The notes under the pieces: model-generated
Told to the model about the DNA's origin: nothing
Databases searched by the model: none
What the model saw: the letters and a program-made list of their open reading frames with translations, nothing else
Part shown: positions 2,388 through 11,193 of the stretch, one piece after another
Layout: the number at the start of each line of letters is the position of its first letter
How positions within the stretch are numbered: the first letter of the stretch is position 1
Translations under genes and position numbers: made by a program
Source: a virus
Virus genome (UHGV): UHGV-1649846
Strand: one strand, 5' to 3'
DNA length: 11,193 nt

Positions 2388-2918
2388 GGCTGGTTTATTG
2401 TATGCCAAATGATTATTAAAAAGGTTGTGTTAATAACAAAATCCGAAATAATATGCCTGCATATTTTTATCTTGCTTATATTCTGCATATTGTGCATAGC
2501 AGGCTCATCCCTGCAATCAAAACTGTATGATGAGTATTTTTTGTTTTCCTTTTTTCCAGTCATCTGATGATGACCTGCTTCTTTTTAATCCGGATCGACA
2601 TCAGTTTTTTAAGATAATTCCTGCGAGTTATATGCATAAATGCCACAAACTCCGCATTTTATGTGGTTGGGAGTTGCCGGGCGCGCAGTGAGTTTGCTAA
2701 GAAAACTCCTGCATGGTGAATCCCCCTGTGCGGTGGGGTGATACCATTAACCTTTTCTGTCGCCGACAGGTATCACGAACATTTTGTTCACCGGGAGGCA
2801 CCCGGCACCATGTACTTCAATAGATTCTCTCCACATTATGGATATTCTTTCAGAATATCCCACGCAGACTTTGTGTAAATGTTAACAAATGTGCGTTTTA
2901 TTTGATCTGATTCGCTGT

Positions 2919-2948
2919 TTGAGCGTCCAAAACAACGGTATATATAAT
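2919..2948 (+). promoter_or_regulatory. Sigma70-like promoter for the lipoprotein cassette
   Basis: -35 TTGAGC (2919-2924), 17-18 bp spacer, -10 ATATAA/TATAAT (2942-2948); about 30 bp upstream of the RBS GAGGAAAA and the ATG at 2978. Confidence 0.45.
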
Positions 2949-2977
2949 CCTTTACTATATGACATATGTGAGGAAAA

Positions 2978-3406
2978 ATGGGTTTTCGTAGCGCATCAAT
3001 TCTTACGTTGATTATTAGTGGGATTATTATCGGGTGCACTGATGCTGTATCGACAAATTATCATGACCGTACATCATATTACTCCGATAAAGCAATAGAG
3101 ACACAGTATGTGAGTTCATCTGAACGTACTTCTGATGTTAGTGAGGATATCCGTCTGTATGCCCATCAAATCAAGAGCGCCATCGAAAAACAGTTCGGGG
3201 ATGCGAGTAAGTATTCAGGAAAAGAGTGTACACTGAGAATGCATATGGCCCCGAATGGCCTTCTACTGGAGGTTAAAAGAGAAAGTGGAGACCTCGATTT
3301 ATGTCGTGAAGCGATGAATGCGATAAAGAATGCTGATATACCTGCCCCCCCTTCGCCGGAAGTATATAAAGTATTTCAAAATGGGGTGCTGGATTTTAAA
3401 CCCTGA
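2978..3406 (+). CDS. Lipoprotein with a TolA C-terminal domain (domain III)-like fold
   Basis: 142 aa. Signal peptide with lipobox IIGC (Cys20), then a ~50-residue Ser/Thr/Asp-rich linker, then ~85 residues that align closely with my recollection of the E. coli TolA C-terminus, including both conserved Cys and the terminal VLDFKP. RBS GAGGAAAA precedes the ATG. Confidence 0.8.
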   Translation: MGFRSASILTLIISGIIIGCTDAVSTNYHDRTSYYSDKAIETQYVSSSERTSDVSEDIRLYAHQIKSAIEKQFGDASKYSGKECTLRMHMAPNGLLLEVKRESGDLDLCREAMNAIKNADIPAPPSPEVYKVFQNGVLDFKP

Positions 3407-3469
3407 TATTTATTGTTTTGTAATAAACGGTTTCGGCTTAGGTTTGTTCTGACACAGCTACGGCACTGA

Positions 3470-3481
3470 GCTAAATTTAGC
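3470..3481. repeat. Perfect 12-bp palindrome GCTAAATTTAGC between the two lipoprotein genes
   Basis: Read directly. A second short palindrome GCTCTGAGC lies at 3491-3499. Confidence 0.5.
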
Positions 3482-3556
3482 GGATAGTCAGCTCTGAGCC
3501 AGTGGCGGACGTAACAACTACTATTGCTGAGATTTTAATGGATTGAGGAGCAAGAA

Positions 3557-3952
3557 GTGGGATTAAAGAAAATCGTTATGTTGACTTTTTGGGTCGGTTT
3601 TGTTGCGGGATGCACACCTTTACACCCTTCAGATTGCCACAAAACTACTGCTACAGGTAGTTGCAGTTCAGGACGCTGGGATGATCAGGATGAATGGGGG
3701 GCGCAAGCGCGGGGAATCAGAGCTGCAATTAATGCCAAACTTGATGAGCCGCATAACTGGAAAGGGAAAAAATGCAGGTTGCATATGGAATTCTCTCAGG
3801 ATGGCACGGCGTTAAAAATATCTACCAGTAACGGTGATAAAGCCTATTGCGAAGCGATAAAGTCCGCAGCTCATAAAGCCAAATTTCCGGCCTTCAACAA
3901 TCCGGAAGTCTACAGAGATTTTCAGAAATCTGGCTTTGACATGCGAGGTTAG
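3557..3952 (+). CDS. Second, more divergent TolA-domain-III-like lipoprotein (tandem paralogue)
   Basis: 131 aa from a GTG start 6 nt after a strong SD (GAGGAG 3545-3550). Lipobox VAGC (Cys19). C-terminal ~80 residues keep the TolA-III pattern GK.C.L...DG...G...C.A...A...P....VY..F with both Cys conserved. Confidence 0.7.
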   Translation: MGLKKIVMLTFWVGFVAGCTPLHPSDCHKTTATGSCSSGRWDDQDEWGAQARGIRAAINAKLDEPHNWKGKKCRLHMEFSQDGTALKISTSNGDKAYCEAIKSAAHKAKFPAFNNPEVYRDFQKSGFDMRG

Positions 3953-4077
3953 CTCTTCAATTACTATATCTCATTCATAGCAAACTGACAGATTTGATGA
4001 TGTTCTATATACGAAACCTGTGATGTCAAGTCTGAGCTAATACAAATAAACATAATATCAGAGAAATACATTTTATT

Positions 4078-4101
4078 AGCTCGCTACGGCGAGCTTTTTA
4101 T
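4078..4101 (+). terminator. Intrinsic terminator closing the lipoprotein cassette
   Basis: Stem AGCTCGC (4078-4084), loop TACG, stem GCGAGCT (4089-4095), then TTTTTA. Confidence 0.6.
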
Positions 4102-4203
4102 ATTGCATCGTCTCCAGCATATATATCAATTAAGGCTCTGATTGATGTGTCTGAAAGCCTACACATAATAACTATGCCATCCGTTCCGTGCGGAGGTGAG
4201 GCT

Positions 4204-4419
4204 ATGAAATCCATGGACAAAATTTCAACAGGCATTGCCTACGGCACCTCCGCAGGCAGTGCTGGCTACTGGTTTTTACAGTTGCTCGATAGAGTAACTC
4301 CGTCACAGTGGGCTGCAATCGGTGTGCTGGGTAGTCTGGTATTTGGCCTGCTGACGTACCTGACAAACCTTTATTTCAAGATTAAAGAAGATAAGCGCAA
4401 GGCTGCGAGAGGTGAATAA
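4204..4419 (+). CDS. Class II holin, phage 21 S-type pinholin with dual-start motif
   Basis: Begins [26 protein letters not shown]..., nearly the S21 sequence as I recall it. Met1 and Met4 give the antiholin/holin dual start. SD GGAGGTGAGG at 4191-4200. The track's longer ORF from 4147 lacks an RBS. Stop overlaps the endolysin start (TAATG). Confidence 0.85.
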
Positions 4420-4916
4420 TGCCTCCATCATTACGAAAAGTCGTTGCTGCTGCTATTGGTGGCGGAGCAATTGCTATAGCATCAGTGCTAATCACTGGCC
4501 CAAGTGGTAACGATGGTCTGGAAGGTGTCAGCTACATACCATACAAAGATATTGTTGGTGTATGGACTGTATGTCACGGGCATACAGGAAAAGACATCAT
4601 GCTCGGTAAAACGTATACCAAAGCAGAATGCAAAGCCCTCCTGAATAAAGACCTTGCCACGGTCGCCAGACAAATTAACCCGTACATCAAAGTCGATATA
4701 CCGGAAACAATGCGCGGCGCTCTTTACTCATTCGTTTACAACGTGGGTGCTGGCAATTTCAGAACATCGACGCTTCTTCGCAAAATAAACCAGGGCGATA
4801 TCAAAGGCGCATGTGATCAGCTACGTCGCTGGACATATGCTGGCGGTAAGCAATGGAAAGGTCTCATGACTCGTCGTGAGATTGAGCGTGAAATCTGTTT
4901 GTGGGGTCAGCAATGA
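4419..4916 (+). CDS. SAR endolysin (phage 21 R-type lysozyme)
   Basis: 165 aa. Gly/Ala-rich weakly hydrophobic N-terminal signal-arrest-release segment ([20 protein letters not shown]), then a lysozyme-like domain. Sits immediately after the holin and overlaps the Rz start (ATGA). Confidence 0.85.
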
Positions 4917-5377
4917 ACAGAGTAACCGCGATTATCTCCGCTCTGGTTATCTGCATCATCGTCTGCCTGTCATGGGCTGTTAATCATTACCGTGATAACG
5001 CCATTACCTACAAAGCCCAGCGCGACAAAAATGCCAGAGAACTGAAGCTGGCGAACGCGGCAATTACTGACATGCAGATGCGTCAGCGTGATGTTGCTGC
5101 GCTCGATGCAAAATACACGAAGGAGTTAGCTGATGCGAAAGCTGAAAATGATGCTCTGCGTGATGATGTTGCCGCTGGTCGTCGGCGGTTGCACATCAAA
5201 GCAGTCTGTCAGTCAGTGCGTGGAGCCACCACCGCCTCCGGCGTGGATAATGCAGCCTCCCCCCGACTGGCAGACACCGCTGAACGGGATTATTTCACCC
5301 TCCGGGAACGACTGGTAATGATGCAGGCCCAACTTGAAGGTGCTCAGCAATACATAACCGAGCAGTGTTTAAAGTAA
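4913..5377 (+). CDS. Rz-like i-spanin
   Basis: ATG at 4913 overlaps the endolysin stop. N-terminal transmembrane segment ([14 protein letters not shown]), then a coiled-coil-like charged region. Contains the Rz1 gene in the +1 frame. The track's GTG start at 4901 is rejected. Confidence 0.8.
5133..5318 (+). CDS. Rz1-like o-spanin, embedded in Rz in the +1 frame
   Basis: 61 aa. Signal peptide plus lipobox (LVVGGC), proline-rich mature part (PPPPPAW..PPPDW). SD AGGAG at 5121-5125, 7 nt before the ATG. Confidence 0.8.
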
Positions 5378-5514
5378 AATCTTAACTACAATATGATTCA
5401 TTTTGATGATTGTTTCATAAGGAACAGTGAAGTAAGATCTAAGAGGAGTTAAATTTTATACAGTATAATCATAATATTGCAGCAAGGTGGTTATAATTGA
5501 AAGAATATTTAGAT

Positions 5515-6972
5515 ATGAATACATCTCATGTAAGAGTTGTTACTCATATGTGTGGGTTCCTAGTTTGGCTCTATAGTCTTTCAATGTTGCCACCAATGGT
5601 TGTAGCATTGTTTTATAAAGAAAAAAGCCTGTTCGTTTTCTTTATAACTTTCGTTATATTTTTTTGCATTGGTGGCGGAGCGTGGTATACAACTAAGAAA
5701 TCTGGCATTCAATTACGTACCCGTGATGGGTTTATTATAATTGTAATGTTTTGGATTTTGTTTTCTGTTATTAGTGCATTCCCTTTATGGATTGACTCAG
5801 AACTTAATTTAACGTTCATTGATGCTCTGTTTGAAGGGGTTTCTGGAATAACAACAACAGGAGCAACTGTAATTGATGATGTTAGTTCATTACCTCGGGC
5901 ATATTTGTACTATCGGTCACAGTTAAATTTTATAGGTGGTTTAGGAGTTATTGTTCTAGCGGTTGCTGTATTGCCATTATTGGGTATTGGTGGTGCAAAG
6001 CTTTATCAGTCAGAAATGCCGGGGCCATTTAAGGATGACAAACTCACTCCCCGCCTGGCCGATACGTCACGGACACTGTGGATAACTTATTCTTTATTAG
6101 GTATTGCTTGTATTGTCTGTTATAGACTTGCAGGAATGCCTTTGTTTGATGCTATTTGTCACGGGATTTCCACAGTTTCGCTTGGTGGTTTCTCAACTCA
6201 TAGCGAGAGTATCGGATATTTTAATAACTATTTGGTTGAGCTGGTGGCTGGTTCTTTTTCCCTGCTATCGGCTTTCAACTTCACTCTTTGGTATATTGTT
6301 ATTAGCAGGAAAACGATAAAACCTTTAATCAGAGATATTGAACTTCGTTTCTTTCTGTTAATAGCCTTAGGGGTGATCATTGTTACCTCTTTCCAGGTCT
6401 GGCATATAGGTATGTATGACTTGCATGGAAGTTTTATTCATTCGTTTTTTCTTGCCAGCTCCATGCTCACTGATAATGGTTTAGCTACGCAGGATTATGC
6501 AAGTTGGCCCACGCACACGATAGTGTTTTTGCTGTTGTCAAGTTTCTTTGGGGGATGTATAGGTTCAACTTGTGGTGGAATTAAGTCACTTCGATTTCTT
6601 ATACTTTTCAAACAAAGCAAACACGAGATAAATCAGCTTTCTCATCCCAGAGCGTTGTTGAGTGTAAATGTAGGAGGGAAGATAGTTACAGATCGTGTAA
6701 TGAGGTCTGTATGGAGTTTCTTTTTTCTTTATACTCTCTTCACGGTGTTTTTTATACTGGTGTTAAATGGTATGGGATATGATTTTCTTACATCATTTGC
6801 AACAGTGGCTGCATGTATTAATAATATGGGATTAGGTTTTGGGGCTACTGCATCGTCATTCGGAGTGCTTAATGACATTGCAAAATGCTTAATGTGCATA
6901 GCTATGATTCTTGGTCGCCTTGAAATTTATCCTGTTATTATATTGTTTTCAGGTTTTTTTTGGCGCTCCTAA
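5515..6972 (+). CDS. trkG: TrkH/TrkG-family potassium uptake membrane protein
   Basis: 485 aa from the ATG at 5515 (MNTSHVRVV...), multi-pass membrane protein of the Trk K+ transporter family, matching my recollection of E. coli TrkG. Visibly AT-rich. An upstream in-frame TTG at 5497 preceded by SD AAGGTGG (5485-5490) would add 6 residues. Confidence 0.9.
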   Translation: MNTSHVRVVTHMCGFLVWLYSLSMLPPMVVALFYKEKSLFVFFITFVIFFCIGGGAWYTTKKSGIQLRTRDGFIIIVMFWILFSVISAFPLWIDSELNLTFIDALFEGVSGITTTGATVIDDVSSLPRAYLYYRSQLNFIGGLGVIVLAVAVLPLLGIGGAKLYQSEMPGPFKDDKLTPRLADTSRTLWITYSLLGIACIVCYRLAGMPLFDAICHGISTVSLGGFSTHSESIGYFNNYLVELVAGSFSLLSAFNFTLWYIVISRKTIKPLIRDIELRFFLLIALGVIIVTSFQVWHIGMYDLHGSFIHSFFLASSMLTDNGLATQDYASWPTHTIVFLLLSSFFGGCIGSTCGGIKSLRFLILFKQSKHEINQLSHPRALLSVNVGGKIVTDRVMRSVWSFFFLYTLFTVFFILVLNGMGYDFLTSFATVAACINNMGLGFGATASSFGVLNDIAKCLMCIAMILGRLEIYPVIILFSGFFWRS

Positions 6973-7109: not shown

Positions 7110-8435
7110 ATGAGCGAGAAATTAAAGATAGTCTATCGCCCATTACAAGAATTGTCACCGTATGCGCACAACGCCAGGACGCACAGTACTGAGCAGGTGG
7201 CACAACTGGTAGAAAGTATTAAGCAATTCGGCTGGACTAATCCGGTGCTGATTGACGAAAAGGGCGAAATTATTGCGGGTCACGGTCGTGTTATGGCGGC
7301 TGAAATGCTCAAAATGGATTCTGTTCCGGTCATTGTTCTGTCTGGCCTGACGGATGAGCAGAAAAAGGCGTACCGCCTGGCAGATAATCGCCTGCCGATG
7401 AATGCTGGCTGGGATGAAGATCTGTTGCGGATGGAGCTGTCGGACCTAATCAATGCTGATTTTGATGTCTCCCTGACAGGCTTCATCCCGACAGAAATTG
7501 ATGAACTGTTGACGGATGTTTTGCCCGGTACCGGACGTTGCGTCGTGCTGGCTATACCGGGAAAATTTTTATCGTTGTTGATGATGAAGATAAGACACGG
7601 CATCAGTACATGGCTGAATTTGGTGAACAGGTGCTGGTGTTTTCCAAAGCCGATATCGCCAGTCGTTTTGACGAAGCCGATAATTTCTGTGACCGCCGCT
7701 CAATTTTTTACGCCCGTAATGCCTGTTTCGACCTGGCAAAACTGGTCGGGTGTAAATACTTCATTCAGCTCGATGATGATTATCACGAGTTCCAGTTTCG
7801 GGTGGATCGCAACTATGACCAGGCCTATTTTCCGATAAGGAAACTGGATGCGATCCTTTCTGAAATGCTGGCGTACTACGAATCAATACCTGCTCTTTCC
7901 ATCGCTATGTCGCAGGGCGGGGATTTTCTTGGTGACAATGGCGGCCATGCTTCGTGGGTGAAACGCAAGGCAATGAACAGCTTTATCTGTTCGGTTGATC
8001 GACCGTTCTCATTCATGGGGCGCATTAACGAGGATGTGAATACGTACACGAATCTCGGTCGCTGTGGTGAATTGTTTATGACGATCGGTGCTGTCCAGTT
8101 AGGGCAGAAACAGACGCAGAAAAACAGCGGCGGAATGACCGAGCTGTATCTGGATTCCGGAATCAGCGAAGGAACTGGGTATTGATGTTCGCGATATTTC
8201 CCCGGCTGAGCGGGCCAGCATGGATGGCGTGGTGGCCGGAGATACAACCTACAGGGAATGGTTTTTGCGTCAGCCTTACACCAGACAAAAACAGATTGTG
8301 GGGGAAACCCGAGCAAAGCTGATTCGGGATGGTGGTATGTCGCCAGATGAATTTTACACCGATAAAGGCGAATGGCTGACGCTGAAGCAGCTCCGTGAGC
8401 GTGATGCACAGGTATTCAGAAAAGCAGGGATTTAA
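7110..8435 (+). pseudogene. ParB/sulfiredoxin-like N-terminal domain gene, apparently disrupted by two frameshifts
   Basis: Frame 0 from the ATG at 7110 gives ~140 aa of plausible ParB-like sequence (..IIAGHGRVMAA..) and then degenerates. A second frame is open from 7505 to 8185 (DxD-containing segment) and the first frame reopens from 8139 to 8435. Three collinear overlapping segments with one terminator at the end suggest a single decayed gene of roughly 440 codons. Confidence 0.5.
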
Positions 8436-9304: not shown

Positions 9305-9350
9305 CACATTTGTCAGCTTCCGGATGGGAGCTGGTGTCAGGGCTGGATAG

Positions 9351-11193
9351 CTCATTACTCCATCTAAGGGACGCTTCCTGAACAACATTAACGCGGTCAG
9401 TAAAACAGACTTTGCTGATAAGCGTGGTATGCGTTATGTGCGGGTTAACGCTCCTGCAGGTGCAACATCTGGAAAATATTACCCTGTTGTTGTTATGCGT
9501 TCTGCTGGCTCAGTAAGCGAACTGGCATCAAGGGTCATTATCACCACGGCAACGCGAACCGCAGGCGATCCGATGAATAACTGCGAGTTTAACGGATTTG
9601 TTATGCCTGGTGGCTGGACTGACAGGGGGCGTTATGCTTATGGAATGTTCTGGCAATATCAAAACAATGAACGAGCCATCCACTCAATAATGATGAGTAA
9701 TAAGGGCGATGATTTGCGCTCTGTGTTCTATGTTGATGGCGCTGCTTTCCCTGTTTTTGCGTTTATCGAAGATGGCCTGTCAATATCCGCACCTGGTGCT
9801 GATCTCGTTGTTAATGATACGACCTATAAGTTTGGGGCAACAAATCCGGCGACTGAATGTATCGCGGCGGACGTTATCCTTGATTTTAAGAGTGGGCGTG
9901 GTTTTTATGAGTCTCATTCGTTAATCGTTAACGATAACTTGTCGTGCAAAAAACTTTTTGCCACAGACGAAATTGTAGCGCGTGGTGGTAATCAGATTCG
10001 AATGATAGGTGGGGAGTATGGGGCATTATGGCGTAATGATGGCGCTAAAACTTACCTGCTGCTTACCAATCAAGGTGATGTTTATGGTGGCTGGAATACA
10101 TTAAGACCGTTTGCTATTGATAACGCAACCGGCGAACTGGTTATTGGAACCAAACTGTCCGCAAGTCTGAACGGTAATGCATTAACAGCAACAAAGCTGC
10201 AAACGCCAAGACTGGTTTCTGGTGTTGAGTTTGATGGTTCCAAAGATATTACTTTAACCGCCGCGCATGTGGCTGCTTTTGCCAGAAGGGCAACGGATAC
10301 ATATGCCGATGCGGATGGTGGCGTTCCCTGGAATGCCGAATCAGGCGCTTACAATGTCACCCGCTCTGGCGACAGCTATATTCTGGTTAACTTCTATACC
10401 GGAGTCGGAAGTTGCCGGACCCTGCAGATGAAGGCGCATTACAGAAATGGTGGTCTGTTCTACCGTTCTTCAAGAGATGGCTATGGTTTTGAGGAAGACT
10501 GGGCAGAAGTTTATACCTCGAAAAATCTTCCACCAGAAAGCTACCCAGTCGGCGCACCAATCCCGTGGCCATCAGATACCGTTCCGTCTGGTTATGCCCT
10601 GATGCAGGGGCAGACTTTTGACAAATCTGCCTACCCGAAACTTGCTGCCGCTTATCCGTCAGGCGTGATCCCTGATTTGCGTGGCTGGACGATTAAGGGC
10701 AAGCCCGCCAGTGGTCGTGCCGTATTGTCTCAGGAACAGGATGGCATTAAATCGCATACCCACAGCGCCAGCGCATCCAGTACGGATTTGGGGACGAAAA
10801 CCACATCGTCGTTTGATTACGGCACTAAATCCACGAATAACACTGGTGCGCATACCCATAGTTTAAGTGGCAGCACGAATGCAGCTGGTAATCACAGCCA
10901 TAGAGATGGCCGTCGATTTAACCCCAGTGTTTTTAAAGATACTTATCAATATGGTTATACAAGCTCAGGTCAAAATACCTGGGGTGTACAAGGCTCAGTA
11001 GGTATGTCTACGGGGTGGTTAGCGAATACCAGTACAGATGGTAATCATAGCCATTCACTGTCCGGCACAGCAGCATCTGCAGGTGCACACGCGCATACTG
11101 TCGGTATTGGTGCTCATACGCACTCCGTTGCGATTGGTTCACATGGACACACCATCACCGTTAACGCTGCTGGTAACGCGGAAAACACCGTCA
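9351..11193 (+). CDS. stf: Side tail fibre protein, 5'-incomplete and running off the right edge of the window
   Basis: Frame 0 is open from the stop at 9348-9350 to the window end, with no RBS-supported start (first ATG at 9429). The last ~210 residues match the lambda Stf C-terminal region as I recall it ([58 protein letters not shown].. with GAHTHS/GNHSHS repeats ..[15 protein letters not shown]). It is absent from the ORF track because no stop codon falls inside the window. Confidence 0.85.

Follow-up and report, generated by a model that had tools for sequence, protein, structure and literature searches.

The stretch of DNA analysed here, 11,193 nucleotides of the virus genome UHGV-1649846 (hereafter the window, in whose coordinates all positions are given unless another contig is named), carries a small gene, orf2, whose product would be an outer-membrane lipoprotein that is both functional and autonomous: its frame is intact and conserved, its C-terminal part is predicted to adopt the TolA-III fold, and the localisation is deduced from its leader. 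From our point of view, the protein could serve as a TolA-III decoy or competitor that makes its carrier tolerant to Tol-dependent invaders, a reading in which we infer both the ligand binding and the protective phenotype, and to which we assign a probability of about 45%. What was known before is the TolA-III domain, and RefSeq annotates the gene by this domain only. A first interpretation of the same DNA, made without database searches (hereafter the original prediction), had taken orf2 for a diverged tandem copy of its upstream neighbour orf1; the comparisons set out below rather point to an old, horizontally mobile Enterobacterales family that appears to be independent of orf1.

The peptide strings quoted in the original prediction are all found in the translation of 3557-3952, and its proposal that a second intact lipoprotein with a TolA-III core lies in the cargo slot beside another one is supported by the reading frame, the Pfam match and the structural models. 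In a Pfam scan of orf2, TolA was the sole match above the cut-off (PF06519, TolA C-terminal; E 1.3e-14, 54.6 bits against a gathering threshold of 25 bits, residues 44-125 aligned with profile positions 10-92 of 96), a match to But2 remaining below threshold, and a sequence search of the PDB returned TolA-III chains only (1S62, 3QDP, 2X9A and 1TOL; E about 5e-9). The AlphaFold2 (AF2) model shows the element order α-β-β-α-α-β and reaches a predicted local distance difference test (pLDDT) score above 90 over residues 41-131. When this model was compared with the PDB by Foldseek, E. coli TolAIII (3QDP) was the top match, with a root-mean-square deviation (rmsd) of 1.1 Å over 85 columns and a target template modelling (TM) score of 0.91; further matches, 1TOL among them, were TolAIII complexed with g3p of phage IF1 (2X9A), with colicin A and with M13 g3p, all top hits thus being TolAIII. 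We therefore hold with high confidence, as far as a model can tell, that the C-terminal part of orf2 has the TolA-III fold, and the structural expectation of the original prediction stands.

Several details of the domain follow E. coli TolA as well. Cys73 (3773-3775) and Cys98 (3848-3850) occupy the positions of TolA C363 and C388, and across 128 homologues C73 is invariant and C98 is kept in 99%. The C-terminal strand β3 comprises S125-R130 (SGFDMR), the counterpart of A-P-L-D-F-K in TolA. The ending GFDMRG in place of DFKP, to which the original prediction had drawn attention, is real; SGFDMRG is common to the whole orf2 family and retains the hydrophobic-Asp-hydrophobic-basic pattern of the TolA strand (L-D-F-K). 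At the level of the whole domain, identity to E. coli TolA-III amounts to 34% (BLASTP), and on helix α2 the surface by which E. coli TolA touches g3p is largely replaced (Y340→Q, G342→R, N338/N339→G/A). Despite source names such as 'tolA family protein', orf2 is by these comparisons a member of the TolA_C domain family and not a TolA orthologue, since the full-length TolA models fail (TIGR02794, 47.2 against 59.45 bits; NF007065, 53.7 against 213 bits) and since the protein has 131 amino acids compared to 421 in TolA. The alignments to both models cover only the last ~80 profile positions, and orf1, too, falls below the cut-offs of the full-length models.

The coding sequences indicate that orf2 is under strong purifying, not diversifying, selection. 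When the window gene is compared with its homologues from plasmids, Enterobacter, Citrobacter and Serratia, the ratio of non-synonymous to synonymous substitution rates (dN/dS; Nei-Gojobori, mature coding region) lies at 0.04-0.12 at a dS of 0.5-1.1, and the mature part of the protein is nearly invariant across genera. A strict intactness filter was passed by 128 of 138 cluster representatives, and about 97% are full length; the other 10 are mostly full-length C-terminal variants, about 3-4 being truncated or frameshifted. Among 80 IMG/VR E. coli prophage contigs, in which the intactness of both genes was scored by tblastn, orf2 was full length and of one protein variant in 80/80. The target-driven diversification that the original prediction had expected is hence contradicted by the low dN/dS and by the uniformity of the protein across genera and prophages.

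The same numbers bear on the suspicion that orf2 is an untranslated or decaying pseudocopy, to which we give virtually no chance. A few entries are indeed frameshifted or truncated (P0067, P0079, P0081, P0088), and the Prokaryotic Genome Annotation Pipeline (PGAP) shifts the start of orf2 and labels orf1 a pseudogene. The aberrant entries, however, form clusters of 1-3 sequences compared to 696 in the main cluster, synonymous substitutions greatly outnumber non-synonymous ones, the frame is intact in nearly all homologues, the Shine-Dalgarno sequence and the start codon are conserved, and the fold is predicted with confidence. The low dN/dS and the intact reading frames thus argue against decay, and on this point the original prediction holds.

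As to the start codon, orf2 begins with GTG at 3557, with the Shine-Dalgarno sequence GAGGAG 6 nt upstream of it. In RefSeq/PGAP the gene begins at an ATG at 3578, by which the basic n-region of the signal peptide is lost; we prefer the start at 3557 because a plasmid homologue has an ATG aligned exactly with this GTG codon. The pipeline also labels orf1 an 'incomplete tolA pseudogene, missing N-terminus', and in strain HKUOPY1 (L001) the PGAP-annotated copies span 9347-9607 and 9779-10153. The pseudogene label of orf1 and the start at 3578 both seem to be artefacts that the full-length TolA model introduced into the annotation. With the upstream start, the leader reads MGLKKIVMLTFWVGFVAG followed by Cys19 and conforms to a bacterial lipoprotein signal, with a basic n-region, a hydrophobic core and the lipobox FVAG-C19. 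In the family alignments G18 is kept in at least 90% and C19 is invariant, the remainder of the signal peptide being variable. Lipoproteins without Asp at position +2 are sorted to the outer membrane, and since this residue is Thr in orf2 (Ala, Ser or Gly in homologues), lipobox and +2 rule together predict lipidation and an outer-membrane lipoprotein in the inner leaflet.

We then have to consider how orf2 relates to orf1, a TolA-III lipoprotein gene on the same strand 150 nt upstream. The original prediction of duplication plus divergence, with the two copies possibly acting as a pair and diverging under arms-race selection, is now highly improbable and largely refuted. It could draw on the facts that both genes are adjacent and co-oriented, that both encode TolA-III lipoproteins matching one family, PHROG 5772 (listed as 'unknown function'; E 6.7e-65 over residues 4-131 for orf2 and 1.6e-62 for orf1), that their products align at 29% identity (E 2e-18, far beyond chance), that the whole module occurs in 773 genomes, and that orf1 lies at one and the same spacing, 154 nt upstream of orf2, in 78/80 IMG/VR contigs. 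However, the two are not each other's closest relatives, as a local duplication would have it. The nearest relatives of orf2 are plasmid and chromosomal genes with 78-89% identity and no orf1 neighbour, while orf1 is 60% identical to residues 336-421 of E. coli TolA (BLASTP) and matches PF06519 with an E-value of 2.4e-23. Because orf1 is so close to the host TolA-III yet only 28% identical to orf2, the two genes represent different lineages, and the low dN/dS together with the single orf2 protein variant in the prophages speaks against an arms race.

By its sequence, orf1 looks like a fairly recent capture of the 3' end of an enterobacterial tolA fused to a lipoprotein leader. E. coli TolA is matched by orf1 at most α2 contact positions and along most of β3, and the final LDFKP is identical; the orf1 linker is acidic and free of Cys. 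The gene is polymorphic (12 variants in the 80 contigs) and interrupted in 2/80 of them (L064 and L094), orf2 being untouched in all 80; in L094, orf1 and orf2 are separated by ~1.2 kb of additional DNA, probably from an insertion element. An orf1 variant with 80% identity occurs without orf2 in a Stx-like prophage of the E. coli 2014C-3097 chromosome (L017, 4947-5375 of that contig), where it occupies the usual stx position after Q, a methyltransferase gene, tRNA-Ile and tRNA-Arg; its homology to the window covers the mature coding part only (3032-3406) and excludes the signal peptide. Since orf2 is likewise found without orf1, namely on I-complex plasmids, on pO157 and on chromosomes, the pair is not obligate, and acting as a pair is not required. 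That orf1 and orf2 recognise different ligands is plausible from their sequences, as orf1 retains most of the α2 contacts and most of β3, and orf2 only the β3 pattern.

The independence of orf2 becomes apparent from its distribution. A search of 5.8 billion proteins gave 370 clusters matching orf2, and the best 120 of these are 78-99% identical to it and stem from Citrobacter, Enterobacter, Serratia, Raoultella, Klebsiella and Shigella. Distant subfamily members with 37-59% identity (Erwinia, Klebsiella, Enterobacter cloacae) were found in an exhaustive search of cluster representatives, several of them retaining the C-x-P-L-x-P-x-x-C...C signature, together with a far wider set of small (120-150 amino acids) lipobox-bearing TolA-III proteins. 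Two long multi-repeat matches (P0159 and P0170) were discarded as low-complexity or repeat proteins. A profile-based homologue search mainly recovered this close subfamily again, with little gain in diversity, and a scan of species-representative genomes added Pluralibacter, Pantoea, Buttiauxella, Lelliottia, Dryocola, Rouxiella, Yokenella and Leclercia. Solitary copies of orf2 are present in Enterobacter, Citrobacter, Serratia and about 15 other genera. One distant relative, a 144-amino-acid TolA-III protein 35% identical to orf2, is encoded on the Klebsiella pneumoniae IncR plasmid pINF319.3 (L016, 4217-5246) directly 3' of a thioredoxin-fold gene, adjoining a toxin-antitoxin pair and a TIR-domain gene; relatives of this type are carried by about 300 Klebsiella plasmids.

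Within E. coli, 1269 of 5426 complete genomes (23%) have an orf2 homologue, and 773 of the 5426 (14%) have the two-gene module at an identity of at least 99%. On the chromosomes orf1 and orf2 are almost always together, and at 536 plasmid places of the complete genomes an orf2 homologue with ~88% identity stands alone. On IncK2/Z (I-complex) plasmids it lies between the relaxase gene nikB and trbC, inside the transfer region; as the standard IncI1 plasmid pESBL has only ~37 bp and no gene at this place, the homologue represents accessory cargo there. On pO157 it adjoins a nikB remnant near toxB. The chromosomal homologues sit alone, flanked by genes for a glutathione peroxidase and a RidA-family protein (Enterobacter), near an ars operon and a prophage (Citrobacter), or beside a GmrSD/HEPN pair (Serratia). 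DNA homology between these contexts starts ~30 nt upstream of the orf2 start, including the Shine-Dalgarno sequence, and stops at the stop codon. Across 28 genome loci no conserved neighbour that might be a partner was found, only the generic LysR and SDR families recurring. In the GenBank phage collection, the two-gene module was present in one record only, mEp460_ev081, and PADLOC-DB v2 gave no defence-system match for orf1 or orf2 at E-values up to 0.1. Two 8-kb contigs of metagenome-assembled genomes labelled Lachnospiraceae and Treponemataceae (L100 and L101) each have a NikB-type relaxase gene and, after it, an orf2 homologue of 89% identity; almost certainly, both contigs are pieces of I-complex plasmids of enterobacteria that were mis-binned.

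The segment that links the lipidated Cys19 to the TolA-III domain was described by the original prediction as a distinct, Cys-rich linker with extra Cys. The three N-terminal Cys (C19, C27, C36) are real, but they are no sign of divergence: residues 19-39 are the most conserved segment of orf2, with a mean entropy of 0.22 bits over 128 cluster representatives, compared to 0.35 in the TolA-III core and 1.0 in the signal peptide, and the linker is a family signature. The five Cys of the family (19, 27, 36, 73 and 98) are all invariant or nearly so. Cys27 and Cys36, spaced Cys-x8-Cys, probably form a disulfide loop, and the motif H-x3-C-H-x7-C in which they stand could be either such a loop or a metal site. 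In both AF2 models the linker has low confidence (pLDDT <60); a second run with a subfamily-specific alignment gave a linker pLDDT <50, with no confident structure and no docking on β3. As a further candidate, the string SGRWDDQDEWG was considered as a mimic of the TolB-binding epitope of E colicins (DGSGW...W) and rejected, because these residues extend helix α1 N-terminally (H40-60 in both AF2 models) and the Trp spacing differs.

A short invariant tether with a likely C27-C36 loop suggests a specific role, for instance in positioning or as a second binding site. One could speculate that the disulfide-looped N-terminal segment is itself the binding module, for a porin, another envelope protein, a metal or a component of plasmid transfer, with the TolA-III fold as its scaffold only. 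Short binding motifs typically look like this linker, highly conserved yet with no predicted structure; orf2 also departs from TolA in its α2 surface, and on I-complex plasmids the gene is located inside the transfer region. Nevertheless, we regard a ligand of this kind as distinctly unlikely: the loci examined offer no conserved neighbour that would point to a partner, the lack of the gene in pESBL argues against a part of the core transfer machinery, and the β3 strand pattern is retained.

If the product acts as a decoy, as we favour, the short and invariant tether, with its putative disulfide loop, would anchor it on the inner face of the outer membrane. Its TolA-III domain would there be uncoupled from the TolQR motor, which could turn it into a decoy or competitor. 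In TolAIII, strand β3 is bound by g3p-N1, by colicin N (ColN) and by the TolB N-terminus via backbone β-strand addition, colicin A binding at β2 on the opposite side; for β3, side-chain identity is less important than strand propensity, and sequence constraints are weak (PMC4339652; PMC7391070). By β-strand addition on its own C-terminal strand, orf2 might capture what has to reach the tip of the true TolA, namely the domains by which Tol-dependent (group A) colicins and bacteriocins related to them translocate and the N1 domain of filamentous-phage g3p, and possibly also TolB. Incoming colicin domains and g3p would meet this TolA-III before the true TolA, and the lysogen or plasmid host would become tolerant to Tol-dependent colicins and filamentous phages. 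In the Rac-type prophage, the old orf2 family would have been placed in the cargo slot beside the more recently tolA-derived orf1.

The occurrence of orf2 on I-complex plasmids fits such a role, because phage IF1 is specific for I-pili, the pili of these plasmids are its receptor, and IF1 g3p binds TolA-C (structure 2X9A). Periplasmic TolAIII, as studied by Levengood-Freyermuth in 1993, reportedly conferred colicin tolerance as well. E. coli cells become leaky when TolAIII is exported to the periplasm by itself, which has served as a tool (Wan & Baneyx, 1998), an effect traced to Levengood-Freyermuth (1993), both as cited in PMC6195910.

Several points weigh against the decoy interpretation. 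Given that the α2 contact surface is largely substituted, binding of the E. coli TolA ligands by orf2 is not assured. A protein engaged in an arms race with colicins or phages would not usually stay so nearly invariant from genus to genus, and the stable, non-mobile-looking Enterobacter context fits a housekeeping role in the envelope at least equally well. Further, the linker plays no part in a simple decoy model, and in the literature we found no functional study or experiment on the orf2 family, the text matches being gene lists, reference lists or author names.

Part of these observations would suit a role within the Tol-Pal system of the host, which we nevertheless consider unlikely. The tethered TolA-III domain would then bind the TolB N-terminus (or Pal, or porins) at the outer membrane and thereby adjust the cycling of TolB-Pal, the stability of the outer membrane, vesicle formation or lipid homeostasis; for the prophage, it might contribute to the breakdown of the envelope once the late operon is turned on. 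TolB uses the same β3 strand as ColN and g3p (PMC4339652), and periplasmic TolAIII alone causes leakage according to references in PMC6195910. Within the late region, the cassette follows a Q-like gene and stands just 5' of the holin, lysozyme and Rz/Rz1 genes. The stable Enterobacter context is as expected of a physiological role, and strong purifying selection fits a conserved host partner. On the other hand, a constitutive antagonist should be costly, yet successful plasmids carry orf2 and 14% of the complete E. coli genomes carry the two-gene module. A terminator-like site separates orf2 from the lysis genes, promoter-like sites suggest expression outside the lytic cycle, and the TolA-TolB interaction is weak, at 40 µM (PMC4339652).

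A more far-reaching form of the decoy reading, possible in our view although doubtful, is that mobile elements of Enterobacterales (Rac-type prophages, I-complex plasmids and pO157) carry a dedicated co-receptor mimic, by which their hosts become broadly immune, whatever the receptor, to Tol-dependent colicins and to filamentous phages that are specific for a pilus, such as IF1. The invariant disulfide-looped N-terminal module would in this case position the TolA-III domain, e.g. at porins or at TolB-Pal. If this were true, it would constitute a new class of entry exclusion, built on mimicry of a host factor in the periplasm rather than on masking receptors at the surface, and the window would stack orf2 with a second, E. 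coli-TolA-like mimic, orf1, of different specificity.

TolA-III is the periplasmic handle for group A colicins and filamentous phages and, in normal envelope maintenance, for TolB. Natural copies of it, predicted to be lipid-anchored and motor-less, occur in 23% of the complete E. coli genomes, on the virulence plasmid pO157, on resistance plasmids of the IncK/Z type and in many other enterobacteria; if they work as proposed, they would offer mobile elements a simple and widespread route either to tolerance of bacteriocins and pilus phages or to a retuned outer-membrane stability. Either role bears on colicin ecology in the gut, on strategies that use phages against plasmids, and on how 'tolA' annotations in prophages and plasmids should be read.

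The window as a whole lies within a defective lambdoid E. coli prophage of the Rac type, with the gene order DUF1367, DUF1364 and DUF1133 Q-like gene (506-1934), cargo region, holin/lysozyme/Rz/Rz1 (about 4204-5377), trkG and ParB-like ynaK. The cargo region between the Q-like gene and the lysis genes holds the two same-strand open reading frames (ORFs) orf1 and orf2, and its features are collected in Table 1. A consensus scan found no terminator-like site between orf1 and orf2, and the arrangement of candidate promoter, genes and candidate terminator within the late region fits the moron type of cassette. The block shared with phage mEp460_ev081 extends from 2690 to 4420, the Q gene of that phage being different.

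In E. coli EDL933, the gene EDL933_2012 of prophage CP-933O (described as a TolA-type membrane protein) is 32-fold up after ciprofloxacin (PMC11125564). If it should belong to the orf1/orf2 family, induction of such genes with the SOS response and the late operon would have been shown.

Table 1. Features of the orf1-orf2 cargo region, with window positions and the basis of each assignment.
Feature	Position	Strand	Basis and remarks
STnc100-family prophage small RNA (sRNA) element	2681..2867	+	Rfam RF02076 (83.4 bits; gathering score, 47); immediately 5' of the cassette
Candidate sigma-70-like promoter, TTGAGC-18-TATAAT (10/12 matches)	2919..2948	+	Consensus scan; upstream of orf1
orf1, upstream TolA-III lipoprotein, 142 amino acids	2978..3406	+	ORF list, Pfam, BLASTP
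Weaker promoter-like site, CTGACA-17-TAAATT	3449..3477	+	Consensus scan; orf1-orf2 spacer
Shine-Dalgarno sequence GAGGAG	3545..3550	+	Within the ~30-nt upstream stretch kept in plasmid, Enterobacter, Citrobacter and Serratia homologues
orf2 coding sequence, 131 amino acids plus stop; predicted lipoprotein carrying a TolA-III domain	3557..3952	+	ORF list, Pfam, dN/dS
Predicted signal peptide, residues 1-18 (KK n-region), and lipobox V-A-G-C	3557..3613	+	Translation; Cys19 codon 3611-3613
Linker, residues 20-39 (TPLHPSDCHKTTATGSCSSG)	3614..3673	+	Cys27 (3635-3637) and Cys36 (3662-3664), both invariant
TolA-III domain, residues 40-131	3674..3949	+	AF2, Foldseek, HMMER alignment to PDB TolA chains; mapping offset +290
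Candidate intrinsic terminator, hairpin AGCTCGC-TACG-GCGAGCT plus T-run	4078..4103	+	Consensus scan; hairpin itself at 4078-4095; between orf2 and the holin gene

Some further observations concern the surroundings of the cassette. A segment of the STnc100 region (~2690-2812) recurs at five places in the Stx-like prophage mentioned above (L017, at 5495, 7726, 7996 and 8253 of that contig, plus a short match of 25-26 nt at 5613 and 7840). As in the Rac prophage of K-12, trkG (5497-6972) follows Rz/Rz1 inside the prophage. Downstream, in the ParB-like ynaK region (7110-8185), two ORFs in different frames overlap (7110-7838 and 7538-8185), as a frameshift or a fusion of genes would explain, and in strain HKUOPY1 (L001) the ynaK gene is split by IS3.

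Compared with known systems, orf2 stands closest in structure to E. coli TolAIII (residues ~330-421; 3QDP, 1S62, 1TOL, 2X9A), with which it shares the predicted fold, the disulfide positions, the order of elements and the β3 pattern. Unlike TolA, it has neither the inner-membrane anchor of domain I nor the long helical domain II, so that no coupling to TolQR is expected; instead it shows a predicted lipobox tether to the outer membrane, a substituted α2 and an added invariant Cys-x8-Cys segment at 34% identity. orf1 and its variants in Stx-like prophages have the same architecture of signal peptide, lipobox, linker and TolA-III domain, the same PHROG assignment and the same cargo slot, but orf1 differs from orf2 in being closer to TolA-III (60%), in its LDFKP end and its acidic, Cys-free linker, and in being polymorphic and sometimes disrupted.

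With regard to function, Llp of T5, Cor of phi80, N15 and mEp167, and TraT are small outer-membrane lipoproteins of phages and plasmids, made in the carrier cell, that deny entry to competitors by masking receptors such as FhuA and OmpA. We propose by analogy that orf2 may fall into the same functional class, with the difference that it would mimic a periplasmic co-receptor instead; the Pfam scan gave no sequence relationship, and the analogy is one of function only. Finally, the recombinant periplasmic TolAIII of Levengood-Freyermuth (1993) and Wan & Baneyx (1998), as these are cited in PMC6195910, resembles orf2 in being a TolA-III domain without the rest of TolA, and gives a leaky (tol-like) dominant phenotype. 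That construct, however, is artificial, soluble and overexpressed, whereas orf2 is a natural and divergent protein that is predicted to be lipid-anchored and appears to come with its own expression signals.

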